DNA of 64,000 bases, from NCBI GenBank assembly GCA_043813585.1, contig JBDRKW010000020.1, positions 193,185 to 257,184 of the forward strand, given 5' to 3'. Both the position numbers and the translations under genes were made by a program. The stretch's first letter is position 1. Each line of letters opens with the position of its first letter. This DNA comes from Candidatus Kerfeldbacteria bacterium (lineage in GTDB: Bacteria; Patescibacteriota; Patescibacteriia; UBA9570; XYC2-FULL-38-9). The notes beneath the pieces are model-generated. The model did not search any database, was not told the origin of the DNA, and saw only the letters and a list, made by a program, of their open reading frames with translations. Below are positions 42,612 to 64,000 of this stretch, in pieces.

Positions 42612-44054
42612 TTATCCCTTAATAACCGCAAGCGGCCGCAAGCGGGCAACCCTGCGCGCAAGCCGGGCGCTATCAACCACTAAAACAACTTCATCAACGT
42701 CCTTATATGCCAGCGGCGCCTCTTCGGCAATGCCTGGTACGGATGCTGACCGCACAATAATACCCCGCTCCTGAAGTTCGCTCTTAATCGCCTTTCCGTG
42801 GAATTTCTTCTTGGCAGCATGGCGTGACATTGTACGGCCAGCTCCATGGCAGCACGATCCGAAAGACTCCAACATTCCCTCGTTTGTACCGGCCAGAACA
42901 TACGAGGCAGTACCCATAGTCCCGGGTATCAAGACTGGCTGCCCGACAGCCCTGTATGCTTCAGGGATTTCCGGATGACCCGGACCAAATGCACGCGTGG
43001 CACCTTTTCTGTGAACAATGACCTTTTTCCTGCTGCCATCCAACTCATGCTCTTCTATTTTTGCAATATTGTGCGCAACATCATATACAATGGACAATGT
43101 ACCTTTGCTCCCGAATAACCGCTCCCATCCTTCGCGAACGCGATGCGTAATCATCTGCCGGTTTGTCCAGGCAAAATTCGCTGCCGCCGCCATTGCCGCA
43201 TAATACTGCTTCCCCTCTTCCGATGAAAACGGAGCACACGCCAGTTCCCGGTCCGGCAACTCAATGCCGTAGCGCGCCATCGCGCCGACCATGAGGCGAA
43301 TGTAGTCGGTTGCCACCTGGTGGCCCAGGCCCCGGGAACCGGTATGAATCATTACTGTTACCTGGCCTTTTTTCAAACCATACGCTTCTGCAGCGTCTTT
43401 ATCGAAGATTTCATCAACAACGCCAGCTTCTGCAAAATGATTTCCGGCACCGAGCGTACCCAGCTGGTCCCGTCCGCGCTGCTTGGCCCGCTCAGAAACT
43501 GCACCTGCTTCAGCATGTTCCAACCTGCCGTTAGACTCAATATGAGCCAAATCATCCTCTTCGCCCAGGCCATTCTTAACCGCCCACTCAACGCCGTTCT
43601 CAAGAACATTATCCATATCCGCATCGCTTAGCTTCCACTCACCGCCCCGGCCGACACCGGAAGGGATAACCCCAAACATTTCGCGGGCAACCGATTCTTC
43701 CTCCCCTGAAACGTCTTGTTCTATCAGTTCCGAACGCAACAACCGTACCCCGCAATTGATGTCATATCCGATTCCTCCGGGTGAAATAATCCCATCCGGA
43801 TATTCAATAGCCGCAACGCCTCCAACAGGAAATCCATATCCCTCGTGCATATCCGGCATCCCAATAGCGAATTTCTGTATACCCGGCAGCATTGATACAT
43901 TTATTAATTGGTCCAGCGAGCGGTCTTCACGGATGTCTTCCAGCATTTTTTTTGATGCATACACGCGCACCGGCACGTTCATGCCGTCGCGAACTCCGAC
44001 CGGCAGCTCCCAGATGACATCGCTGATCTTTTTAAAAAGATGCTGTTCAAACAT
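42612..44054 (-). CDS. rtcB: RNA-splicing ligase RtcB (3'-phosphate/5'-OH RNA ligase)
   Basis: 480 aa; metal and GMP-His motifs 'DMHEGYGFPVGG', 'GYDINCGVR', 'AGNHFAE', 'SCCHGAGR'. Confidence 0.93.
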   Translation of the reverse strand: MFEQHLFKKISDVIWELPVGVRDGMNVPVRVYASKKMLEDIREDRSLDQLINVSMLPGIQKFAIGMPDMHEGYGFPVGGVAAIEYPDGIISPGGIGYDINCGVRLLRSELIEQDVSGEEESVAREMFGVIPSGVGRGGEWKLSDADMDNVLENGVEWAVKNGLGEEDDLAHIESNGRLEHAEAGAVSERAKQRGRDQLGTLGAGNHFAEAGVVDEIFDKDAAEAYGLKKGQVTVMIHTGSRGLGHQVATDYIRLMVGAMARYGIELPDRELACAPFSSEEGKQYYAAMAAAANFAWTNRQMITHRVREGWERLFGSKGTLSIVYDVAHNIAKIEEHELDGSRKKVIVHRKGATRAFGPGHPEIPEAYRAVGQPVLIPGTMGTASYVLAGTNEGMLESFGSCCHGAGRTMSRHAAKKKFHGKAIKSELQERGIIVRSASVPGIAEEAPLAYKDVDEVVLVVDSARLARRVARLRPLAVIKG

Positions 44055-44057
44055 ACG

Positions 44058-44495
44058 TCATATGTCAAAAACAATTATTGTTTCATATTCGCCATCAGCA
44101 TTTTTCACAATATCAGCCTCATGGTAGGTTACCGCTTTAACATCATCGTCAAATCCATCAATACTACTGCCCTTCAGCGTGGCAGTTAAAGCCGTTTCTG
44201 TAATGGATGAAAAGTCGACAGTGCAAAAAACAGCTTTTTGTTCATGGGAATTCAACAGGACTTCAGAAAGAAAATCGACCAACAACGCGGTCATATCGGG
44301 CGAGTCTATGGCAATCCCCACCTCAACCGCCTCCGCATCCTTCCTCTCTGCAGAACTATCTTTACAAAATGACTTTGATAATAATTCACTCAACCCCTCA
44401 AAAGCAGAAGCAAACAATTCTTCCTGAGTGGCTCCTGCCACCTTCATCCTGATGTCGGCCGTATGGCCGATGAATTCAAATTTTTTCATGTTCAC
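44058..44495 (-). CDS. archease (RtcB activator)
   Basis: 145 aa 'FEFIGHTADIRMKV ... VKAVTYHEADI' archease fold signature. Confidence 0.8.
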   Translation of the reverse strand: MNMKKFEFIGHTADIRMKVAGATQEELFASAFEGLSELLSKSFCKDSSAERKDAEAVEVGIAIDSPDMTALLVDFLSEVLLNSHEQKAVFCTVDFSSITETALTATLKGSSIDGFDDDVKAVTYHEADIVKNADGEYETIIVFDI

Positions 44496-45085
44496 CCCTT
44501 TAGCGCATAATGCTTGATCGTCTCATAGACAGGTGTATCACCGGCATAGATTGATTCCATCAGGTCAACCACATCAACCTGAATGCCCATCTTTCCTTCC
44601 GGTGTATCCGGGATACGCAATACGTCGGCAATGGATGCATTATCAAAGCGCGCAAGCGTCACGTGCGGTATCGGCTGGTGGTTGCTTTCCTTCATGCATA
44701 TCTGCTCTCCGACAACTGAATCGATATCTTCCACTAATTGCCTGTAAACAGGATTCAGATTAAATAGCGCCCAAACCATCCGCGGACGCCTGCCCGGCGG
44801 CCCCAACTGAAAGGCATTAAACGCCAATTCAAACGGAGGAATACTGTCTGTAACCTGCTGCAATGCATCAATAAGATTTGGGATATCTTCATTCTGTACC
44901 GCACCAAAAAAACGCACCGTTATATGCATATTTGCCTTTCGTGTCCAGCGAATACCGCCGATCTTGCCGTTCATTTTCTGAATCCCGGCTAGCACAGATG
45001 ACACTTCCTGTGGAAGCGGAATAGAGCAAAATAAACGAAGTTTCTGCTTACCCATACGAGCATTATTATACTGATTGTATCCCAC
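44492..45085 (-). CDS. thpR: RNA 2',3'-cyclic phosphodiesterase (ThpR/LigT, 2H family)
   Basis: two H-x-T/S-x motifs 'HITVRFFG' and 'HVTLARF'; 197 aa. Confidence 0.8.
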   Translation of the reverse strand: MGYNQYNNARMGKQKLRLFCSIPLPQEVSSVLAGIQKMNGKIGGIRWTRKANMHITVRFFGAVQNEDIPNLIDALQQVTDSIPPFELAFNAFQLGPPGRRPRMVWALFNLNPVYRQLVEDIDSVVGEQICMKESNHQPIPHVTLARFDNASIADVLRIPDTPEGKMGIQVDVVDLMESIYAGDTPVYETIKHYALKG

Positions 45086-45143
45086 GACCTATGGACTGAC
45101 AAGCGCCCTTTTCAAATATCATAATTCATGGTATTGCAACTAC

Positions 45144-45923
45144 ATGAAAAAGATCCTTGCCCTCCTTCTTGCGATGGTTGTCGTCGGCGTCGCGGCATAT
45201 GTTGCGGCCGATTATTTTTTAGCAACGGATATCATTACTGAAACTGACCAGTCGGCAATTATGCAAGAACCAGGCGCGCCTGAACAACAGGGGCAGCCGG
45301 CCGTGCAGCCGCAGGAAGAATTACCCGAGGATACGGTTCTGGAACCGCAGACACCGCTGCCCAACGAGGCAAACCTGGACATCCCGTTCACTCCTCAGGC
45401 TCCACACGCAAACTGGGACCTGCCGTATCAGGAAGCATGCGAAGAAGCGAGCATGATGATGGCTGCGCGATTTCTGCAGGGACGAACCATTGAAGATGCA
45501 GATGACGCTGACCGCGCAATCCTCCAGTTGGTTGAATACGGCAAATCTCTTGGCTACCCGGTTGACACGACTGCGGAAGAAACAGCAACAATACTGACCA
45601 GCTTTTACGGCTTACGCACGGAAGTCCTCCGTGATTTTTCCTGGGACGAAATCAAAGAGGCAATTGCTGACGGCTATCCGGTCATTATCCCTGCTGCCGG
45701 ACAACAACTTCAGAACCCAAATTTTACCGAACCCGGTCCGCGCTACCATATGCTCGTTATCAAAGGATATTCGCCTGAAAAAATTATCACGAATGATCCG
45801 GGTACAAAAAACGGCTTCAATTACGAATATGACTACAATACTCTCTTCAGCGCAATACATGACTGGAACGGCGGGGATGTGGACAACGGCGCCAAAGCGG
45901 CGATCATTGTGATGCCGGAATAA
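45144..45923 (+). CDS. peptidase C39-like domain protein (secreted/membrane-anchored)
   Basis: N-terminal signal/TM 'MKKILALLLAMVVVGVAAYV'; Q..C..H arrangement 'YQEACEEASMMMA' ... 'YHMLVIKGY'; start moved from 45075 to the Met preceding the signal peptide. Confidence 0.5.
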   Translation: MKKILALLLAMVVVGVAAYVAADYFLATDIITETDQSAIMQEPGAPEQQGQPAVQPQEELPEDTVLEPQTPLPNEANLDIPFTPQAPHANWDLPYQEACEEASMMMAARFLQGRTIEDADDADRAILQLVEYGKSLGYPVDTTAEETATILTSFYGLRTEVLRDFSWDEIKEAIADGYPVIIPAAGQQLQNPNFTEPGPRYHMLVIKGYSPEKIITNDPGTKNGFNYEYDYNTLFSAIHDWNGGDVDNGAKAAIIVMPE

Positions 45924-45955
45924 GGGGGGGGTGGTATTTATCAGAAAAAAGGTTT

Positions 45956-46597
45956 GTGATACACTTTTGCTATATGGGCATCTCATTCAACCGGCTCGGA
46001 TTTGGATTCTCGATCGCATCGTTTATCGGCTTTGTGGTATTTTCTGTTTATCTTCTATTTACGTCTGATGAATCATTCCGCGCGATTGTAGGCCTGATCT
46101 GCGCAGCCTCTGTTCTTGCTCCGCGAATAATCTACAAAAAAACTCGCTTGTTCAACTTTCTCTCTGCAGAACTTCTTGGCGTACTCGAACTGATGCTTGA
46201 CCTGCTGCTTATCTTTAACGGCATCGGCGCACTCGGGTTCTATCTTGAGATGCAATACTATGACATGGCGCTGCACCTTTTTAGCCCTCTTGCCGTTGGC
46301 ATTATGCTCGCGCTTATGCTGGAGTCCTACCTGCACCGATACACTATTCAAAGTATACGCATTATTCAGTGGTTTACGATCACAGGAACCATCACGCTTG
46401 TACTGTTCTGGGAATTCTGGGAATCAGTCGGCGATATGATCTTTCATACGCAGATGTCAGGCCAGCCAGGCGAACCGTTTGATACGCTCTACGATGTTCT
46501 CGGCGGCATCGCAATAATGGCTGTGCTCTATCTGTTTAATCGTTACCTCCTCGCGCCTTCTATCCGAATCTTGGCAGTATCTAAAATACAAAAATAA
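45956..46597 (+). CDS. hypothetical polytopic membrane protein
   Basis: 213 aa, 5-6 TM, no family recognised. Confidence 0.4.
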   Translation: MIHFCYMGISFNRLGFGFSIASFIGFVVFSVYLLFTSDESFRAIVGLICAASVLAPRIIYKKTRLFNFLSAELLGVLELMLDLLLIFNGIGALGFYLEMQYYDMALHLFSPLAVGIMLALMLESYLHRYTIQSIRIIQWFTITGTITLVLFWEFWESVGDMIFHTQMSGQPGEPFDTLYDVLGGIAIMAVLYLFNRYLLAPSIRILAVSKIQK

Positions 46598-46625
46598 GCC
46601 GGCACGAAGCCGGCCTTATTTTTTT
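46598..46625. terminator. bidirectional rho-independent terminator
   Basis: AAAATAA-GCCGGC-acgaa-GCCGGC-CTTATTTTTTT between convergent genes. Confidence 0.7.
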
Positions 46626-46627
46626 AT

Positions 46628-47119
46628 CTATTTTGTATCTTTTGTTGCTGTCCAAGATCCGCCAATATCACCGTTCAGGTCTACCCAAATCCCTTTCATG
46701 ATAAGATTACTGCCATACACGCCTTCAAACAACTCCGTTCTGTCAGTTGACTGCAACTTTACATTCACTCCGTCAAAGGCGTACGAACCCCACGCCTTAG
46801 TAACACTTCCTACTGGCCGAGACAGTGAACCGTCAGAATTGAAAAGTAATGTTAACGAAGTTTCTTCCTTTCCGTCGGTCTGGAGAATTGTCCATTGTCC
46901 AACCACCTCTTCGGCAAGCTTCTGATCAAAATCAATTTGAATATCCTGTGCATTTGCGCAATCGCGCGGACAAAACTGATCTTTCTCCTCCTCCACGCTG
47001 CAAATGCCATCGCCGCAAAAAAAGGTCACCTGGCGCGAGGGTGTCTGCTCCCGGAACGGACATTGCCATCCGGTAACGGCGATAGACAGTAGTATGACAC
47101 CAAGCATGCTCTTTTTCAT
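46628..47119 (-). CDS. secreted Cys-rich hypothetical protein
   Basis: signal peptide, 'CPFREQ..FFCGDGICSVEEEKDQFCPRDC' 6-Cys module followed by a beta-rich domain. Confidence 0.4.
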   Translation of the reverse strand: MKKSMLGVILLSIAVTGWQCPFREQTPSRQVTFFCGDGICSVEEEKDQFCPRDCANAQDIQIDFDQKLAEEVVGQWTILQTDGKEETSLTLLFNSDGSLSRPVGSVTKAWGSYAFDGVNVKLQSTDRTELFEGVYGSNLIMKGIWVDLNGDIGGSWTATKDTK

Positions 47120-47122
47120 ATC

Positions 47123-47524
47123 CTATTTGGTTATTGATTGTGATCGTAGCTCTTTCACCCTGTCAGTCGCCCACTGCGCTATAAATAAACCACCGATAAC
47201 AAACAATGCTATTGCTATGATGAGAGCGCCCCATTCAAAATTATTCCAAATCATCACGATATATCCGATTCCCAACGCTATATGCAATCCTCCGCCAATC
47301 ATAGGCCACTTCGACGATATCACCAGTAGAATGATCAGGATATAATTGGGTATAAGATGAACAAACAACGCAATAATCGTTTCCGAAAAAGTAGAGTCTT
47401 CCGAAAACACATCGAGTGCAAATATCGCGATAAATCCAATAAAAAGAACAGCTAAAATACGCGGTGTCCAAAAAATAAAACCACGCTTATTGCCTCTGGC
47501 AGTAGTTGTAACCATATGTTTCAT
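47123..47524 (-). CDS. hypothetical small membrane protein
   Basis: 133 aa, 4 TM. Confidence 0.4.
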   Translation of the reverse strand: MKHMVTTTARGNKRGFIFWTPRILAVLFIGFIAIFALDVFSEDSTFSETIIALFVHLIPNYILIILLVISSKWPMIGGGLHIALGIGYIVMIWNNFEWGALIIAIALFVIGGLFIAQWATDRVKELRSQSITK

Positions 47525-47547
47525 ATAGCGTTAGTATATCAAAAAAC

Positions 47548-48237
47548 CTATATTTTGTAGATGACATCCTTGCGTTCGACCACTATCTTCCATGCCCGTC
47601 GCCTCGCCGCCTGCAACAGTTGGCGGTTCGGATTAAAGCAAATCGGATTGTCTACCATGGACAAAAATCCGATATCCGATTCGGTATCCCCGACTCCGAT
47701 CGACCCGATAAGCGAAAAATTGCCTTTTTCCAGCGCCCGCGACAGAATTACGCCTTTATCTTTTATCAATTCCTGGAACTCCACCTTGCCCGTATACCTC
47801 CCGTTCGCCCCCACTTCAAATAGCTGGCCATACACTTTATGGAAACCAAGATGCCGGCAAAATTGTTCAACGGCTTCTTTTGGTGAATGGGATATTGCGA
47901 GCAGAGAATAATTTCGCTTCCGAAGGTCTTTTACAAGATCGCGCGTGTAGCGGTATGTTCTGTCTTTATGTTCCGCAACGACCCTGATTGCGATCTTCCT
48001 GAATGTTGTCTGCGGCAGCCCTTTAATATTTTTATGGAACGCCTCAATTACATCCTGTATATAATCGTCATACGAACCTTTGCGGTCCATCCAGCGGCCG
48101 CGCGCCGCGCTATACTGCGCAATCACGCTCGATTTCCAGATCCCTTCTTTTACCAGCGCTTCGGTAATTTCAATCAGCAGGCTCGACCGAAAGATCGTCC
48201 CGTCAATATCGAAAATGGCTACGCGTTGCTTAGCCAT
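47548..48237 (-). CDS. HAD-IB family hydrolase (phosphoserine phosphatase-like)
   Basis: 'VAIFDIDGTIF' motif I, 'GDTESD' motif IV-like; 229 aa. Confidence 0.75.
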   Translation of the reverse strand: MAKQRVAIFDIDGTIFRSSLLIEITEALVKEGIWKSSVIAQYSAARGRWMDRKGSYDDYIQDVIEAFHKNIKGLPQTTFRKIAIRVVAEHKDRTYRYTRDLVKDLRKRNYSLLAISHSPKEAVEQFCRHLGFHKVYGQLFEVGANGRYTGKVEFQELIKDKGVILSRALEKGNFSLIGSIGVGDTESDIGFLSMVDNPICFNPNRQLLQAARRRAWKIVVERKDVIYKI

Positions 48238-49622
48238 TAGAGTAAATGCATATCTTCAATCTCGCTGCGCACGCCGCGCAATACGACCTCTTCAATATGG
48301 TATGCGCCGTTTCGGGGCGCGTCCAGAAAACCCTCCACCGCAGCCTGCGCCAGCCACCCGGACGACAGCCAATCCTGCAACCACTCCTGCGTATACCTGG
48401 GATCTTCCTGCTCAACGCCGGAACCAACGGCATGGAGCCAGGCCTTATTAAACTCTTCCTGGCTGCCGATGGACGGCGCCATGATGATCGGTAGTCCCAG
48501 ACCGGCATAAAATGACATTTCACTCGGCTTGGTCCAGAGAATATCCGTGGTTAGCAACGCCTGGTTCATCTTAGCAAAGTAATCCATTTTATTTTCATCA
48601 TAAATGATGGATACCCCGCCTTTGTGCTTCAATTTCATGTGCAGCCGCTTCACTTCATTATCGTAATAGCTGAACACGTCGCTGCGTGAGCCGGCCACCA
48701 GGTTCAAATTGATCTTTCCCTTATCGATAGAATCATGAAGGCTGTCCAGTATCTGGATTCCAAGTTCTCGCTGCGCACCGGCACCGCCCACGGCAAATGT
48801 AATCGTCAGCGGACGCTTGGGCTTCATGGCGCAATATTTCGCCCCAAAATAATATTCTACCGTTCGTCGGTATTTATTGCGGTAACGAAATTCCGGGTCC
48901 AGGTTGCACAAACGTTCGCCGATACTTTTTTTCAGGATGCTCAATGATGCCCCTCCGATATTCTCTTTTGGCAATGGAAACCCGGTGATATTAATATTCT
49001 TTTCCTGCACCCCATACAGCATCAGGCGCTCTTTCACGCGGCGGTTCGGCGCGAGGTAGTTAATCCGGCTCTTCTTCGGATCCATCGCCGCCCAGGCACG
49101 GCTTACATCCGTGTCCGTGCAGATGCAGTAGATATCACCCTTATATCCATGCTCCTCTGCAAAAAATGCCGTCGTAAAAAAGGATGTTACATACGGCAGC
49201 GGATCCTTATTCAATATTTCAATGAGATCCCTGCCCCACCCGCCTTTGATAGATGCGTAGATCTGCCGCAGCTGCAGGCTCGGCTTGGACAAATCGCGTT
49301 CCGGATAAAACGGTTTTATCCGCTGCATATAATCCATTACGCCAAATATCCACTCACCAATAAGCGGCAGGTTCTTCATTCTCGAAATCTTCTCATAAAT
49401 GGAACGTCCGCCTTCCCACAGGCGCCTGTCGCTCGCCGGAATACCCGGGTAGCGGTTTGCGGTGATGATCTCGCCGTTTTTATCGCCCCATCCCACCGGG
49501 CTAGCCGCAATTTCCTTTAACGGATAAACCGCCCGCTGGTGTCCGTAACCCATGTCCACAGTCACGATATATGCCCTTTTAAATGTCTTTTTCTGCGTTT
49601 CCATAACGATTGAAGTATACAA
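48237..49622 (-). CDS. GT-B glycosyltransferase, MGDG-synthase/UgtP-like (GT28-like)
   Basis: 461 aa; N-terminal 'VTVDMGYGHQRA' and mid 'TITFAVGGAGAQ' resemble the two Gly-rich loops of GT28 diacylglycerol glycosyltransferases; weak. Confidence 0.45.
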   Translation of the reverse strand: MYTSIVMETQKKTFKRAYIVTVDMGYGHQRAVYPLKEIAASPVGWGDKNGEIITANRYPGIPASDRRLWEGGRSIYEKISRMKNLPLIGEWIFGVMDYMQRIKPFYPERDLSKPSLQLRQIYASIKGGWGRDLIEILNKDPLPYVTSFFTTAFFAEEHGYKGDIYCICTDTDVSRAWAAMDPKKSRINYLAPNRRVKERLMLYGVQEKNINITGFPLPKENIGGASLSILKKSIGERLCNLDPEFRYRNKYRRTVEYYFGAKYCAMKPKRPLTITFAVGGAGAQRELGIQILDSLHDSIDKGKINLNLVAGSRSDVFSYYDNEVKRLHMKLKHKGGVSIIYDENKMDYFAKMNQALLTTDILWTKPSEMSFYAGLGLPIIMAPSIGSQEEFNKAWLHAVGSGVEQEDPRYTQEWLQDWLSSGWLAQAAVEGFLDAPRNGAYHIEEVVLRGVRSEIEDMHLL

Positions 49623-49657
49623 GAAAACAGCCTTACAGTGAAATCATTTATACTTAT

Positions 49658-50473
49658 CTATAATCCAACGACTTTCCGCGTTGCCCAGTCAACGAAACGG
49701 TCAGGTAAAAACTGTGCCAGCCATATCATCGGCGCGTTGCTGCGCGGTGCGACATATCGTGTTCTCGGCTTCTTTGCTTCAACAGCATGGACGATAGCTT
49801 TTACTACTGACTTTGTGGAATAGCCGCCATCCCAAAATGTATTTTCCGCTTGTTTCATCTTCGGGATCTCAAATGCGTATGCCGATTCCTCTGTTAACCA
49901 TTCATGCTTCGTAGCCTGCATTTCTTGGTTAAATCCGGTGTTGATCTTTCCGGGTTCGATCAACGAAACAAACACACCAAACTGTTCAAGTTCAGTACGC
50001 AGGTTATCCGCAACAGCTTCCAACGCAAATTTTGTCATATGGTACGCGCCCATATATGGAACAACCAGCCGACCGGCAGTAGAGCCGACAATGATGATTC
50101 GTCCTTCGCCTTTGCGGATCAAACGCTGTCCGACTAATTGCGCGAGATGAAGATTCGCAAACACGTTGGTCTCAAAATTACTGCGCACCCGTTCCATGGG
50201 GATTTCAATAAGAGGTCCGGATTCGCCCACACCGGCATTATTAATCAACACATCCGGTTTTCTTTTTGCAGCCTGCTTGCGGTCCTGCTCATCCAAAACA
50301 TCCAGCTTGATAAAGGTCATTTTCAACCCATGCTCCTTCACATGCTGCTGCAACTCATTCAAGTCCTCGAGCGACGCCGCTGATGCAATGACGTCGTGTC
50401 CGCGTTCCGCAAGAGCAATTGCGGTATCGCGTCCAATCCCAGTCGCTGCCCCAGTTACTAAAACTTTGCTCAT
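49658..50473 (-). CDS. SDR-family oxidoreductase
   Basis: 'VLVTGAATGIGRD' cofactor motif, 'NNAG', YxxxK 'YHMTK'. Confidence 0.85.
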   Translation of the reverse strand: MSKVLVTGAATGIGRDTAIALAERGHDVIASAASLEDLNELQQHVKEHGLKMTFIKLDVLDEQDRKQAAKRKPDVLINNAGVGESGPLIEIPMERVRSNFETNVFANLHLAQLVGQRLIRKGEGRIIIVGSTAGRLVVPYMGAYHMTKFALEAVADNLRTELEQFGVFVSLIEPGKINTGFNQEMQATKHEWLTEESAYAFEIPKMKQAENTFWDGGYSTKSVVKAIVHAVEAKKPRTRYVAPRSNAPMIWLAQFLPDRFVDWATRKVVGL

Positions 50474-50475
50474 TA

Positions 50476-50994
50476 CTATCGGATCACTTTCGCGGGAACT
50501 CCTCCTACAACGCTTTTAACCGCAACATCCTTTACTACAACCGCGTTCGCTCCGATTGTTGCACCGTCTCCGACTTTTACCGGACCGAGAATCTTTGCAC
50601 CTGCAGCAATGGTAACATCATCACCAATGGTCGGTGCTCCGCTGTAAGCATCACCCTTCACTCCAACTGTAACACCCTGTGATAGAATCACGTTCTTGCC
50701 AATAACGGCGTCTTTATGAACAAAGATTCCGCTGAAATGATTGATAAACACTCCGGGACCGATAGTTGCGTGGCGCGAAATTGAAATCCCCCAACTCATC
50801 TCGACCCAGAGCTTCAAGAAAAAATAAATTAGAAGACCCAGCTGTTTTACTATAGGTACTCGCATTCGTGTGAAGAAACTCCCAAATCGATAGACCGCCA
50901 TCGCATGAACGCTCGGCAAGAATAGCAGCATTACAAAACTTAACCCGTGTAGCTCCTGTAATTCCTTAATTCGTTTTATGTCTTTGTATAGCAT
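50476..50994 (-). CDS. hexapeptide-repeat O-acetyltransferase (serine acetyltransferase/WcaB-like)
   Basis: 172 aa; C-terminal LbH repeats 'IGDDVTIAAGAKILGPVKVGDGATIGANAVV'. Confidence 0.7.
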   Translation of the reverse strand: MLYKDIKRIKELQELHGLSFVMLLFLPSVHAMAVYRFGSFFTRMRVPIVKQLGLLIYFFLKLWVEMSWGISISRHATIGPGVFINHFSGIFVHKDAVIGKNVILSQGVTVGVKGDAYSGAPTIGDDVTIAAGAKILGPVKVGDGATIGANAVVVKDVAVKSVVGGVPAKVIR

Positions 50995-51045
50995 ATTTCA
51001 TGTTCACTGCCCTAAGTATAGCACTCAATTCAAATAAAAAAAGAG

Positions 51046-51074
51046 AGCGCTATCCTTGACGTTTTCAATTATTT
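51046..51074 (+). promoter_or_regulatory. sigma70-like promoter (TTGACG ... TATACA/TACAAA) for orphan GC-rich ORF
   Basis: TTGACG at 51046-51051 followed 15-17 nt later by TATACA/TACAAA; AT-rich context. Confidence 0.4.
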
Positions 51075-51124
51075 TGTATACAAAACAGCAAACGCAACGG
51101 CTGAAGCAAACACCAGGGGGTCAC

Positions 51125-51418
51125 ATGTCCAAGCTTCTCTCTCCAGCAGATCAAGTTGTATCGGCCCTGACCGGGAAATTCGAGCTCCGCCATCCGGAGC
51201 GGCTTCGGGCCCAAGTGGACGACAGCGAACGCTTTATCATCGTGCGCATTCGGCACAGTCCGCATGACGCCGTGGTGAAGCACACGCTGCACAACTCGAC
51301 GCATCCGACCACGCAGGCACTCGCCGACGAACTCAGTAAGGCGCTGAAGGCCGGTGACCGCAGGGTCTCGTTCTTCGTGGCTTCGGACCTGAACCCGTTC
51401 CCCAAGATCGACGGCTGA
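51125..51418 (+). CDS. orphan small protein (~97 aa) in GC-rich island, own strong RBS
   Basis: GGGGG Shine-Dalgarno 4-5 nt before ATG (MSKLLSPADQ...); ~60% GC versus ~48% host; no family recognised; alternative upstream ATG at 51056 lies in the promoter and was rejected. Confidence 0.5.
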   Translation: MSKLLSPADQVVSALTGKFELRHPERLRAQVDDSERFIIVRIRHSPHDAVVKHTLHNSTHPTTQALADELSKALKAGDRRVSFFVASDLNPFPKIDG

Positions 51419-51427
51419 CGTCGATCC

Positions 51428-51468
51428 GCCCGTAATAGCACTCCAACGCTGTTCCGGGCTCTTTTTTT
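51428..51468 (+). terminator. putative intrinsic terminator (GCCCG...CGGGC + T7)
   Basis: imperfect stem-loop followed by TCTTTTTTT immediately after the orphan ORF stop; abuts the copA stop. Confidence 0.4.
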
Positions 51469-53746
51469 AAAACTTCGCTTTCCTTAGGCGCAAAGAATTT
51501 GATAGCACAGAAACAGAACTGAACGCCATCGCCATTCCGGCAAAAACCGGATTCAACATGATTCCGAAAAATGGGTAAAACAGGCCTGCAGCCAGCGGAA
51601 TACCGATCACATTATAGATGAACGCCCAGAATAAATTCTGCTTGATAATGCGCAGTGTTCGCTTTGACAATTGCAGCGCCTGCACGACTTTGCGGATATC
51701 CCCATGAAGAATCGTTATATCAGCGCTCTCTATGGCTACATCAGTGCCCGTACTCATAGCTATTCCGACATCTGCCTGGGCCAACGCCGGCGCATCGTTA
51801 ATGCCGTCACCGACCATTGCAACGACACGTCCCTCCTTTTGAAGATCCTGAATATTCTTTGCTTTGTCTTCCGGCCGCACCTCGGCAAGCACTTTTTCAA
51901 TACCCAGCTGGCTTGCTATTGCCTTGGCCGTCGCTTCGTTGTCGCCCGTTATCATGACGACGTCAATACTGTATTTCTTCAGACGTTCTACTCCTTCCAC
52001 AGATTCTTCCTTTACAACATCCGCTAAAGCTAATATCCCAACATGACTTTTCCCGCGAGCAACATGGATGACGGTCTTGCCATCATTTTGGAGCGGCCCG
52101 ACGCGCTCCAATAACGCATTATTCAATTCAATAGATTCTTGCTCGAGCAATGACGCGCTGCCAACAAACCATTGTTCGTTACTGATGGTTGCTTTTATGC
52201 CAGCTCCCGCAACTTCTACCGCATCTGTGACTTCGAGGATGGGACAACTGTTGTCATACGCGCTTCGGACAACTGCCGCGCCGAGCGGATGCAAAGACAA
52301 CTGCTCCACGCTTGCAGCATATTGCAGCAGGCTGGTATCGTCCAAATCGGCTCCTTCGGCAACAATCCGGTCGGTGACTTTCGGCTTACCCTGTGTAAGC
52401 GTCCCTGTTTTATCGAACACGACAGTGTTGACCGCGTGCGCCCGTTCCAGACTTTCAGCATTTTTTATCAACAATCCATTGCGGGCAGCCGTACCGGTAG
52501 AAACGATAATCGCCGTCGGCGTAGCCAGGCCAAGCGCGCATGGACATGCAATTACGAGCACGCCAACAAGCGCCGACACTGCGAACGGCAGCGCGCTTTC
52601 AAAACCCAAATAATGGCTTCCAACCGTCAACCACAAAACAACAGAAACGACGGCAATGATAAGAACTGCAGGAACAAAATACGCCGCTATTAAATCCGCA
52701 AACCTCTGAATGGGTGCTTTCGATCCCTGCGCATCCTGCACCATACGAATGATCTGGGCCAACACTGTATCCGCTCCCACTGCCGTGGTCTTCACGCTAA
52801 TTACGGCTTCAGTGTTTACGGTGGCGCCAATAACAACGTCCCCGACAGCGCGCTTCACCGGAAGGCTTTCGCCGGTTACCATCGACTCATCAATGTGCGA
52901 CGTCCCTTCAACAACTTCGCCGTCTACCGGCACCTTCTCCCCAACCTTCACAACACACACATCGCCCGGCTTCACCTCGTCAATAGGTATATCAACCAGC
53001 TCATCGCCGCGCTTCACATGCGCAACACGCGCCTGCAGCTTCATCAGCGCTTCAATGGCCTCGCCGGTTTTCAATTTGGAACGAACTTCCAAATACTTGC
53101 CGAACAGCACGAATCCAATGACCACAATGACGGCATCAAAGTAAACGGCTTCCGATAGTCCGTATTGTTCGTGCAATTCCGGGAAGAGCAGCACTGCCGT
53201 ACTGTAGAGATAGGCAACCGTCATGCCGATTCCAACCAACGAATTCATATCCGCACTTCCATGCCTGATAAACCGCCAGGCTCCCGCGAAGAACCTCCAG
53301 CCCGAATACGCAAGCACGCCTGTAGCGACAACAAACTGTACGCCATTCAAAATGCGTTCAGGAATGAAAAATTCCAGCCCAAACGCGCGGAACAGTATTT
53401 GCGCAATCATCAGGATAAAAACAATCACTGCCGCAACAAATGCAGGAACTGCTTTTGACCGTAGTTTCGACGCTTCCTGCTCGCGCTCTGTTTTAAGCGA
53501 TGGCACTGCACCCTCCTCCTTCTTTTCCTCTAATTCATGGAACACATATCCATGCGCGGCCAACGCGTTGTTCACCTGTCCAACGCTCACCTGCTCCGGG
53601 TCGTACGCCATTGACGCCGTTTCAGTGGCAACATTCACCGCAATCGAATCGATGCCGTCAATTTTACCGAGGATACGTTCGATAATCGCAGCACAAGAAG
53701 CGCAGGTAATGCCTGTGACGCGAAATTGTTGTTTTGTTGAACTCAT
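51467..53746 (-). CDS. copA: copper-translocating P1B-type ATPase
   Basis: N-terminal HMA 'GITCASCAA', 'CPC' in TM6 '[12 protein letters not shown]', 'DKTGTLT', 'GDGINDAP'. Confidence 0.93.
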
Positions 53747-55415: not shown

Positions 55416-55796
55416 TTACTCGATCAGACGTACGGTTTCAAAATGATAGAGCGGCGGATACCACTCCTTTTGATGTATGTACAACTCAAGTTTCCGGAAC
55501 TCGAAAACAACTATAATGCTTGCCGCAACAGCAAGCAGAAACGTAACAAGATTGAGGATCATTTCCTGGCCACCAGGAACAGTCGCAGACGCAAGGCAGT
55601 GCTCCAGGCAATCAAAATCAATGCCCATAATGCACGTAACTCCTTCGCAGCCATCCATCTGTATGGCCGGCATCATCTGCATATTTCCATGATGAAACCC
55701 AGGAACCAGCTGAAAAAAGCCGGAAACCGTGACAAAAATGATAAACAGCAGTGCTGCAACATATTTCATATCCGCCAGTGTATCACAATCACTCAT
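55416..55796 (-). CDS. small Cys/His-rich membrane protein (possible metal-binding)
   Basis: 126 aa, 2-3 TM, 'MDGCEGVTCIMGIDFDCLEHCLAS'. Confidence 0.35.
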   Translation of the reverse strand: MSDCDTLADMKYVAALLFIIFVTVSGFFQLVPGFHHGNMQMMPAIQMDGCEGVTCIMGIDFDCLEHCLASATVPGGQEMILNLVTFLLAVAASIIVVFEFRKLELYIHQKEWYPPLYHFETVRLIE

Positions 55797-55850
55797 TTAA
55801 TCCACTCTATCATTGACAGCAGGCCGTTCTTCCGTTATACTCCGCCGGTT

Positions 55851-57650
55851 ATGGATTTCAGAAATATAGCTATAATCGCCCACGTTGACCACGGCAAAAC
55901 GACGCTCGTTGATGCCATGTTTGCGCAATCTCAAACCTTTTCCGCACGCGAAGCGGTAGTGGAACGGGTCATGGACAGCAACGACCTGGAAAAAGAACGC
56001 GGCATCACCATTTACGCAAAGAATGCCGCTATTACGATTGGCGACGCTAAGGTCAATATTGTCGACACGCCCGGGCATGCTGATTTCGGTTCGGAAGTGG
56101 AACGCGTGCTGCGGATGGTGGATTCGGTGCTACTGCTGGTTGACGCCTACGAAGGGCCGATGCCGCAAACGCGGTTTGTCCTGCGCAAGTCACTGGAATT
56201 GGGCTTAAAACCCATTGTGGTAATCAATAAAATTGACAAACCGTCCGCGCGTCCCGATTCGGTGGTTAACATGATATTTGACCTGTTCGTCGAGCTCGGC
56301 GCGAGCGATGAACAGCTGGATTTTACATACATCTTTACGAATGCAAAAAAAGGCATTGCAAAAAACAGCCTAAAGGATGAGAACACGGATTTGAAGCCGT
56401 TGTTTGACGTCATTATGAACAAAGTCGCGCCTTCGAAAAGCGATGTCAATGCGCCAATGCGCATGCAGTCGGTCAACCTGGAATACGATGCTTTTGTCGG
56501 CCGCATGGCATCGGGCCGCATCTATGAAGGAACGGTAAAAGTTGGCATGCCCGTCACGGTTGTGAAGTTGGACGGCACGCGCGAAAAACATAAAATCACC
56601 AAGCTGCTGACGACCCGCGGGTTAACAAAAGTAGATGTGGATGAAGCGGTCGCCGGCGACATCGTATCCGTTGCAGGCATTGCAGATATTAATGTTGGTG
56701 AAACGATTGCCGAGGAGGAAAACGCTGAAGCGCTTCCCGCAATTTCGATCGACCCGCCGACGCTGACCATGAACTTCCTCGTGAACAATTCACCGTTTGC
56801 GGGCACGGAAGGAACGCTGGTGACCACGCGCCAAATCCGAGAACGCCTGGAGCGGGAGCTTGAGACAAATGTCGGGCTCCACATAGAATTTTTGGAAAAC
56901 GCCGATACGTTCAAGGTCAGCGGCCGCGGCGAAATGCACTTGTCCATTTTAATCGAAACCATGCGCCGCGAAGGATATGAACTGCAGGTAAGCCAGCCGC
57001 AGGTCATAGTAATAGAGAAAGACGGCAAGAAACAGGAGCCGTATGAAAATGTCATTATTGACGTGCCGGACGGTTTTTCCGGAGCTGTTATCGAATCGCT
57101 CGGCAAACGGCAGGGAGAACTAAAGGCAATCAGCAGCGAGAATGGTTCAACGCGCCTGGAATATGTGATTCCGACACGCGGCCTGCTCGGGTATAAGCAG
57201 GAATTCACCACCGCAACAAAAGGCGAAGGGACCATGTCGCATGTGTTTGCAGAATACGGACCGTGCAAAGGCGATATTGAAAGCCGTGTCACCGGGTCGC
57301 TTATTTGCGGCAACGCCGGCACCACAACGGGTTTTTCATTGAGCAACATCCAAAAACGCGGCGCGCTGTTTGTTGGACCGGGCGAAAAGGTTTACGAAGG
57401 TATGGTCCTGGGCATCAGCGCAAAAGAATCAATGGTCGTTAATCCGACGAAGGGAAAACAACTCTCCAACATGCGTTCTTCCGGAGCCGACGAAGCGATC
57501 ATCCTTACTCCCCCGCTTGATATGGATCTGGAAAAAGCGCTGGAATACATCGACGATGATGAATACGTTGAAGTGACGCCGAAAAACATCCGCATCCGCA
57601 AACAACATCTGACCAAGCTCGAACGAAAAAGGCACGGCGACAGAGCGTAA
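55851..57650 (+). CDS. typA: translational GTPase TypA/BipA
   Basis: '[16 protein letters not shown]', 'DTPGHADF', 'NKIDK' G-motifs, EF-G-like domains; start at MDFRNIAII, since the 136-aa upstream ORF-track extension is antisense overlap. Confidence 0.93.
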
Positions 57651-63561: not shown

Positions 63562-64000
63562 TTATGACTTTGTTTCTTCCAATGATCCTGCCGAGCATCC
63601 GCTGCAGCCGACTTTTTCACATCCCATCTTTATATCGACCCGCTTTCCTTCAGAATCCTTCAACGTGATCTCGTGCGTCAGCAAATTGCGCGCAACAACG
63701 ACCCCTTCGCCGTGCGTCCTCGTGCGGATATGCGCGCCAACCTCCGGCATGGCGTCTGCGCAAACGCGGTATCCTTCAGATTCATACGACAGGCAGCATT
63801 TCAGCCGTCCGCACAAGCCGCTCAAGCGGTCGCTCCCGCGGTGTTCCAGCTGCTGCAGCTGGATCAGATCGGAACTGACGCTGTCGAGCGTCGCCTTCCA
63901 GGTGGAGCAGCAGGTTGGACGCCCGCATGATCCCACGCCGCCCATCTCTGCTGTCACATCACGCGAGCCGATCTGCTGCAGCCTGATCTGGCGCTGGAAA
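63562..64000 (-). CDS. PSP1 C-terminal domain (RicT/YaaT-like) protein, 5' end truncated by window edge
   Basis: 'GRPTCC' and 'GRLKCCLSYE' motifs characteristic of the PSP1 domain; reading frame stays open to the window end. Confidence 0.5.
   Translation of the reverse strand, partial: FQRQIRLQQIGSRDVTAEMGGVGSCGRPTCCSTWKATLDSVSSDLIQLQQLEHRGSDRLSGLCGRLKCCLSYESEGYRVCADAMPEVGAHIRTRTHGEGVVVARNLLTHEITLKDSEGKRVDIKMGCEKVGCSGCSAGSLEETKS

Follow-up and report, generated by a model that had tools for sequence, protein, structure and literature searches.

Why does a short, GC-rich open reading frame (ORF) stand in opposite orientation between two genes of a Candidatus Kerfeldbacteria genome, and where did it come from? 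The ORF, referred to here as ORF97, lies in a stretch of 64,000 nucleotides (the window; 48.6% GC) inside a 351-kb contig of a metagenome-assembled genome (MAG) of this lineage, a member of the candidate phyla radiation (CPR; Patescibacteria). It extends from position 51125 to 51418 of the plus strand, comprises 97 codons from ATG to TGA, and is deposited at NCBI under the accession number MFH1426769.1 as "hypothetical protein ABIG66_05070." ORF97 looks like a genuine stand-alone protein gene that is specific to this lineage, and we consider its horizontal acquisition from outside to be slightly better than an even bet. The original prediction, made from the sequence letters, had described the segment as a self-contained cassette of promoter, strong Shine-Dalgarno (SD) sequence, ORF, and terminator. 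The SD, ORF, and terminator were recovered in our analysis, whereas the promoter had been overstated.

Composition and coding capacity of ORF97

ORF97 is located on the plus strand of the 472-bp gap between copA and an acetyltransferase gene, both of which are encoded on the minus strand, and is antisense to both. The predicted GC-rich ORF of about 97 amino acids opposite to its two neighbors was thus found at 51125 to 51418, with a sequence identical to that quoted. Its GC content is 0.609 as compared with 0.486 for the window (z = 2.9), which corresponds to the top 0.3% of all 293-nt windows. The GC contents at the first, second, and third codon positions (GC1, GC2, and GC3) are 0.653, 0.418, and 0.755, respectively, versus 0.54, 0.37, and 0.55 in host genes. 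The GC3 of host genes is 0.555 ± 0.069, and none of 1,438 host windows of 97 codons reaches the value of ORF97 (maximum, 0.72); a single one of them reaches its total GC content. The raised GC content is not a property of the codons alone but also spans the untranslated region (UTR) and the terminator. The resulting segment of ~375 bp (51087 to 51460, plus strand; 60.7% GC) comprises the 5' UTR, the ORF, and the terminator stem, and in a 30-nt profile the GC content climbs from a range of 0.27-0.37 to one of 0.53-0.67 and drops to ~0.40-0.47 past position 51460. The GC shift that had been proposed is therefore real by a sliding-window check, with a GC3 above that of all 1,438 host windows, yet it amounts to about 3 standard deviations.

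To assess coding capacity, all six frames were scored with a codon model derived from loci of 57 to 66% GC (66 long ORFs with 28,208 codons). The GC1, GC2, and GC3 of the training genes (0.646, 0.462, and 0.765) are near those of ORF97. Windows of 97 codons from true genes scored 0.25 ± 0.14 bits per codon, and the true frame was the best of six in 94% of the cases. The ORF97 frame scored +0.266 bits per codon, which equals the median for real genes and surpasses 99.8% of the windows in a wrong frame. The profile over all six frames (0.27, -0.72, -0.63, 0.08, -0.23, and -0.87) closely follows that of real genes (0.25, -0.67, -0.62, -0.03, -0.33, and -0.90), and a strong three-base periodicity accompanies the codon signal. 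An ORF of at least 97 codons that starts with ATG arose by chance in 4.3% of composition-matched simulations. ORF97 is, or very recently was, protein coding in the annotated frame, and its composition is typical of genes from genomes of ~62% GC. Coding on the opposite strand was considered and rejected: the two antisense ORFs of 96 and 79 amino acids scored -0.23 and 0.08, as expected for shadow frames, and matched no family. The interval from 50995 to 51466 consequently holds only one coding-like ORF.

Translation initiation in ORF97 and in the host

An SD sequence was defined as a purine-rich stretch that is complementary to the 3' end of 16S rRNA and located 4 to 9 nt upstream of the start codon. 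ORF97 possesses such a stretch, AGGGGGT (51115 to 51121, plus strand), which is separated from the ATG by a 4-nt spacer (TCAC) and forms 7 pairs with ACCUCCU, one of them G-U. Its duplex with the canonical anti-SD sequence CACCUCCUUUC has a calculated energy of -10.6 kcal/mol, the second best among 60 genes; a canonical anti-SD was presumed here, given that the window does not include the 16S 3' end of this organism. These values agree with the strong SD at 4 to 5 nt from the ATG noted in the original prediction.

The host genes follow another style, since about 55 of 60 starts have nothing SD-like. The same is seen in relatives with 47%, 54%, and 58% GC (loci L083, L089, and L090), which are SD poor, with a strong SD in 0 to 1 of ~15 genes. 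The extended -10 type (TGnTAnnnT) prevails among host promoters, and operon-leading genes of this genome often have a -10 box close to the start; such a box ends 4 to 12 nt before the start codon in 7 of 59 genes, versus 3.9% in controls. The data suggest that leaderless mRNAs, or mRNAs with very short leaders, are widespread in this CPR clade; a literature search on SD or leaderless usage in CPR bacteria and on Kerfeldbacteria retrieved nothing specific.

A separate observation concerns typA, for which the longest-ORF call (55443 to 57650) is too long. The start of this gene is the ATG at 55851, which is 9 nt past the -10 element of a near-consensus promoter (TTGACA-17-TATACT, 55813 to 55841), so that typA is near-leaderless.

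ORF97 homologues and gene order in relatives

At the protein level, ORF97 is a strict singleton. Both a word-indexed search of 5.8 billion clusters and an exhaustive HMMER search of 1.84 billion representatives returned only the protein itself, tblastn matches in plasmid and phage records did not exceed chance level (E ≥ 3), and scanning of viral and metagenome contigs with the ORF97 peptide retrieved nothing. A second copy of the ORF97 unit was found neither in the window nor in the fetched loci of relatives.

Public collections contain a single contig of this species, and the comparison of gene order was based on more distant loci. The closest CopA proteins are 66 to 73% identical, and their contigs retain the cop operon, which in the relatives consists of a small transmembrane protein with a CLEHCL motif, a DsbD_2-cupredoxin-HMA protein, a 72-amino-acid HMA protein, and CopA. 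The C terminus of CopA in the window is intact and ends where those of the relatives do. ORF97 is at a synteny break, because each relative has another gene behind copA (RibD_C, FGase, or cytochrome b5) or its contig ends there. On the other side, the closest acetyltransferase (69% identity) is encoded on a Logan contig (SRR17165147; locus L089), where the upstream neighbor across a 64-nt spacer is DJ-1/PfpI and where the genes for DUF6938, peptidase C39, LigT, archease, and RtcB are common to the window; a scan of genome contigs gave no relative of the acetyltransferase above 48% identity. ORF97-like DNA or protein is absent from the four copA relatives and from L089. As judged from these alignments of gene order, ORF97 is a single-gene novelty at a synteny breakpoint.

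Two further observations were made in these comparisons. (i) In L089 (54% GC), the DUF6938/LigT/archease/RtcB/peptidase C39 block is syntenic with positions 44000 to 51000 of the window, and the SDR gene is inverted and has changed sides relative to the acetyltransferase gene, which indicates a local rearrangement around the latter. (ii) The spurious extension of typA hides a gene of the cop operon at 55419 to 55769 (minus strand). It encodes a 117-amino-acid membrane protein with the CLEHCL motif that matches no Pfam family. In all relatives, this gene precedes that for the DsbD_2-cupredoxin protein. The idea that ORF97 is the missing small gene of the cop operon was discarded, given that this gene is present at that site and is unrelated to ORF97.

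Origin of ORF97

Acquisition from outside is favored because two independent features, the SD-led leader of ~30 nt and the GC3 of 0.755, depart from the style of the clade. It is also favored because ORF97 is absent from all relatives examined and is located at a synteny breakpoint. The proposal of foreign DNA is accordingly the best supported one in terms of GC3, SD, absence in relatives, and synteny break, but it is unproven, and the compositional excess is about 3 standard deviations. According to this scenario, ORF97 would stem from a GC-richer (~60 to 65% GC), SD-using donor, either a bacterium or a phage, and would have been inserted as a unit of ~375 bp, comprising the 5' UTR with the SD, the coding sequence, and the terminator, at a breakpoint behind the cop operon that is prone to recombination. 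The mRNA would be monocistronic, with a leader of ~30 to 35 nt, and would be produced from a weak promoter in the AT-rich, host-like upstream DNA. Its translation would depend on the SD, unlike that of the mostly SD-less and often near-leaderless host genes. The terminator on the plus strand is strong and unidirectional; it stops transcription exactly at the copA stop codon and thereby keeps it from entering copA in the antisense direction. Since a minus-strand terminator behind copA is lacking, read-through may proceed antisense across ORF97 toward the acetyltransferase promoter, and mutual interference may result.

Horizontally acquired ORFans offer the closest comparison. Like them, ORF97 is short, restricted to one genome, atypical in composition, located at a synteny breakpoint, and equipped with signals of its own for translation and termination. 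Whereas classic ORFans usually have a higher AT content than the genome in which they reside, ORF97 is GC-richer than its host; it further differs in carrying an SD in a mostly SD-less clade and in having no phage or mobile-element gene nearby. It is a lineage-specific orphan of a familiar type that is unusual only in its GC richness and in its SD within an SD-poor clade.

A number of observations weigh against an external origin. (i) No donor or homologue was found anywhere, although one would normally be expected if a sampled lineage had been the source of a recent transfer, and higher-GC relatives exist in the wider clade. (ii) The compositional excess is modest (~3 standard deviations). 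About 10 other peaks of at least 0.58 GC are present within the window, and several conserved host genes have segments with a GC content of 0.58 to 0.63 and a GC3 of 0.70 to 0.74, including one gene segment with values of 0.62 and 0.72 to 0.74, respectively. (iii) A check of oligonucleotide usage, which had been suggested along with the prediction, gave a divided result: the tetranucleotide cross-entropy of ORF97 is raised (z = 2.4), but the composition-normalized dinucleotide delta* is unremarkable (z = 1.6). Under the flat codon table of the host, ORF97 is at the 6th percentile and hence within range. (iv) The statement that host starts lack an SD holds for ~55 of 60 starts, but about 4 of the 60 window genes have a comparable SD, and HIT, TatD, and archease are host exceptions with good SDs. 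(v) ORF97 has no recognizable promoter, as a consensus scan called nothing and a host-type TGnTAnnnT is missing.

Several of these points are shared by a native origin, according to which ORF97 would be a lineage-specific orphan, either fast evolving or recently born, that owes its high GC3 and its SD to selection for strong expression. We regard this account as unlikely, though it is the alternative that deserves most attention. It is consistent with the observation that the highest GC3 values in the window belong to genes that are conserved or probably expressed at high levels, such as those for ATP synthase subunits (0.59 to 0.64), and with the HIT-domain gene, which combines a GC3 of 0.65 with the best SD in the window; the position of ORF97 within the host codon range and its normal dinucleotide signature also fit. 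It does not account for the lack of an orthologue in relatives or elsewhere or for a GC3 above that of every host window. Moreover, the six-frame profile corresponds to an established gene of a ~62% GC genome rather than to newly coding DNA, and the GC shift includes the UTR and the terminator.

It is considerably less probable that ORF97 is a decaying relic or a spurious ORF, i.e., the GC-rich remnant of an old insertion that is open by chance and encodes no functional protein. Such a remnant might be expected to lack a credible promoter and, being GC rich, to contain long antisense ORFs, and two of these do overlap ORF97. Chance opening to at least 97 codons in 4.3% of the simulated segments would be compatible with it, as would the likely antisense transcription across ORF97 from the convergent copA, which has no terminator. 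However, the ORF is intact, starts with an ATG behind a well-spaced SD, and is followed directly past its stop by a terminator; the codon model places it at the median of real genes and the antisense ORFs among wrong frames (-0.23 and 0.08), and a compact alpha/beta structure is predicted from the single sequence.

An assembly artifact, by which a short stretch of a GC-richer organism would have been stitched into the contig, is very unlikely. An artifact would agree with the nature of the genome (a MAG), with the distinct composition of the segment, and with the occurrence of its sequence on one public contig only. Against this stand an insert of merely ~375 bp with host sequence on both sides in a 351-kb contig, a GC content that shifts gradually through a functional 5' UTR, a terminator T-run that shares bases with the stop codon of copA, whose end matches those of the relatives, and edges devoid of repeats of a length that could bridge a de Bruijn graph. 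Finally, a structured noncoding RNA or cis-regulatory element on either strand, with the ORF being incidental, can practically be dismissed: GC-rich islands in moderate-GC genomes are often RNAs, and the 472-bp gap between copA and the acetyltransferase gene is long for this genome, but Rfam gave nothing at gathering thresholds and, at E of up to 10, only a spurious long noncoding RNA model (16 bits), shuffled sequences fold as well as the whole segment does (z = -0.63 and -0.88 for the two strands), and the segment has a strong codon signal with three-base periodicity.

If the acquisition of ORF97 is real, it would represent a clean single-gene horizontal acquisition into a reduced CPR genome, in which the incoming gene retained a donor-style SD and an intrinsic terminator in a mostly SD-less recipient. 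It would then also provide a small natural test of SD pairing by Kerfeldbacteria ribosomes. Otherwise, ORF97 is an uncharacterized singleton that neither raises a long-standing question nor calls for a new mechanism.

Terminator and repeats at the ends of the segment

The stem-loop and T-run that had been reported downstream of the stop codon correspond to an intrinsic terminator on the plus strand (51428 to 51468). Its stem (GCCCGTAATAGC/GCTGTTCCGGGC) has 11 pairs and one mismatch, encloses an 8-nt loop, and is followed by TC and a run of seven T's. The hairpin (51428 to 51459), together with the T-run at 51462 to 51468, has a folding energy of -22.9 kcal/mol (z = -3.2), values that identify it as an intrinsic terminator; a simple terminator scan missed it due to the internal mismatch. 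The last two T's of the run are the complement of the TAA stop codon of copA. No T-run follows the hairpin on the minus strand, and it is therefore not a terminator of copA. Immediately upstream, a perfect 8-bp hairpin (GATCGACG/CGTCGATC; 51406 to 51426, plus strand) carries the stop codon of ORF97 in its 5-nt loop (GCTGA). Selenocysteine insertion or read-through at this UGA was considered and dropped on the basis of the sequence, in which a hairpin, the T-run, and copA follow.

The use of hairpins with T-runs is not restricted to ORF97. A bidirectional intrinsic terminator at 46596 to 46616 (GCCGGC-loop-GCCGGC, with T-runs on both strands) separates convergent genes, which shows that the host itself uses terminators of this type. 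Terminator-like sites are enriched between 44 and 64 kb (36 versus 21.9 ± 4.8 expected).

Two pairs of repeats bracket the ORF97 unit. The first is an imperfect direct repeat of ~17 nt, with the left copy (GCCC-TAAGTATAGCACTC) at 51009 to 51026 (plus strand) and the right copy (GCCCGTA-ATAGCACTC) at 51428 to 51443. Its local alignment score is 20 as compared with 12.9 ± 2.4 in shuffled sequences (p ~ 0.015), and the left copy overlaps the extended -10 element of the acetyltransferase gene (TGCTATACT, minus strand, 51015 to 51023). This repeat may mark an insertion boundary, a weak lead. The second is a perfect inverted repeat of 11 nt, with arms at 51035 to 51045 (TAAAAAAAGAG) and 51459 to 51469 (CTCTTTTTTTA); it is of low complexity and may be due to chance. 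Within ~7 kb of ORF97, no recombinase, phage, or mobile-element genes were found.

Putative promoter region and palindrome

Promoters of the sigma-70 type were defined by -35 and -10 hexamers at a spacing of 16 to 18 nt, with an A at position 2 and a T at position 6 of the -10 hexamer. The TTGACG reported upstream of ORF97 is present at 51056 to 51061 and is the -35 part of a putative weak promoter (51056 to 51084, plus strand). There are two candidates for the -10 element, namely, TATACA (51077 to 51082) and TACAAA (51079 to 51084), at spacings of 15 and 17 nt, respectively. Both lack the essential final T, and with the scan being blank the promoter claim could be sustained only for the -35 hexamer.

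The putative -10 region overlaps a perfect 14-bp palindrome, TTTTGTATACAAAA (51072 to 51085), which is unique in the window and is located between the divergent starts of the acetyltransferase gene and ORF97. Palindromes of this length are expected ~4 times per 64 kb, or ~0.004 times per 70-nt stretch, the latter being an a posteriori estimate. The palindrome could be an operator or could have arisen by mere chance in AT-rich DNA. Its half-site, TTTGTATA, recurs at 50983 to 50990, across the start codon of the acetyltransferase gene.

The ORF97 product

ORF97 encodes a hydrophilic protein of 10.8 kDa with a predicted pI of 9.3. It has no Cys and no hydrophobic segment but contains 6 His, five of which are within residues 44 to 60. 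AlphaFold2 modeling without an alignment (pLDDT of 59, pTM of 0.50) gave helices at residues 7 to 19 and 63 to 75 and strands at residues 27 to 31, 37 to 44, and 47 to 54. The product is a small basic soluble protein, for which the model predicts, with low confidence, an alpha-beta-beta-beta-alpha fold. A Foldseek comparison of the model with PDB and BFVD gave nothing below an E value of 0.02. In agreement with the initial impression that the protein belongs to no recognized family, no significant match was obtained in Pfam, PHROGs, NCBIfam, PADLOC, or PDB sequences, the best PHROG match having an E value of 0.095.

The suggestion that the segment is an addiction or immunity module was not borne out. 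A toxin-antitoxin (TA) module was taken to consist of two adjacent co-oriented small genes, at least one of which matches a known TA family. ORF97 has no partner ORF, no PADLOC, PHROG, or Pfam match, and no mobile-element gene in its vicinity, and a TA or defense module was rejected.

Three functional proposals were considered, all of them speculative. (i) The best guess, tentative and not a classification, is a small RNA- or ribosome-binding module. The HPF/RaiA/pY family (PF02482) was not listed for ORF97 by hmmscan at E of up to 10, although filters may hide very weak matches, nor was a match obtained by blastp to Escherichia coli HPF and RaiA or by phmmer against PDB. The fetched loci of relatives contained no HPF homologues. 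The HPF/RaiA fold is a two-layer beta-alpha-beta-beta-beta-alpha arrangement, and the model of ORF97 is devoid of the first strand of HPF. As for double-stranded RNA-binding domain (dsRBD)-like modules and HicA of HicAB, ORF97 matches neither HicA nor dsrm in Pfam, has no adjacent antitoxin ORF and no PADLOC match, and its fold scores are insignificant. (ii) Somewhat less plausible is a dimeric DNA-binding autoregulator that acts on the 14-bp palindrome. (iii) A His-rich, metal-binding accessory to the cop locus appears doubtful. A copper repressor was ruled out, for the lack of Cys and of a profile match. ORF97 resembles CsoR and CopY in its small size (~100 amino acids), in its location beside a copper ATPase gene, and in the perfect palindrome upstream. 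It differs in that it has no Cys at all, no Pfam match, and an alpha/beta rather than an all-helical or winged-helix structure, and in that it is encoded on the strand opposite to the operon, at the 3' end of the latter. The motif of the cop box is TACAnnTGTA, to which TTTTGTATACAAAA does not conform.

We attach very little weight to a more far-reaching proposal, namely, that ORF97 would found a new family of small basic alpha/beta (HPF- or dsRBD-like) ribosome- or RNA-binding proteins, captured by a CPR bacterium from outside its clade. Being one of the few SD-led mRNAs in an otherwise SD-less and largely leaderless translation system, ORF97 would then be translated under other conditions than the bulk proteome, and antisense read-through from the copper-induced cop operon could link its expression inversely to metal stress.

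Neighboring genes and other GC-rich patches

The left neighbor of ORF97 (50476 to 50994, minus strand) is divergent from it and encodes a hexapeptide-repeat, serine O-acetyltransferase-like protein of 172 amino acids. The NCBI model of this protein comprises only 129 amino acids, whereas relatives (55 to 69% identity; 181 to 206 amino acids) align over all 172 residues from position 50994; judging from these alignments, the deposited start is probably too far downstream. The right neighbor (51467 to 53746, minus strand) encodes the copper-translocating P-type ATPase CopA; it is the last gene of the conserved cop operon and is convergent with ORF97.

Two further GC-rich patches were noted, one at 63562 to 64000 (minus strand) with a GC content of up to 0.64 and one at 1 to 361 with a GC content of up to 0.62. 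The former contains a Cys-rich ORF (63562 to 63957, minus strand) of at least 131 amino acids with a GC3 of ~0.67 to 0.78, whose frame is open to the end of the window. This ORF has no Pfam or Rfam match and, like ORF97, may represent a GC-rich orphan. In tetranucleotide content, the patch at 1 to 361 is the most atypical part of the window.

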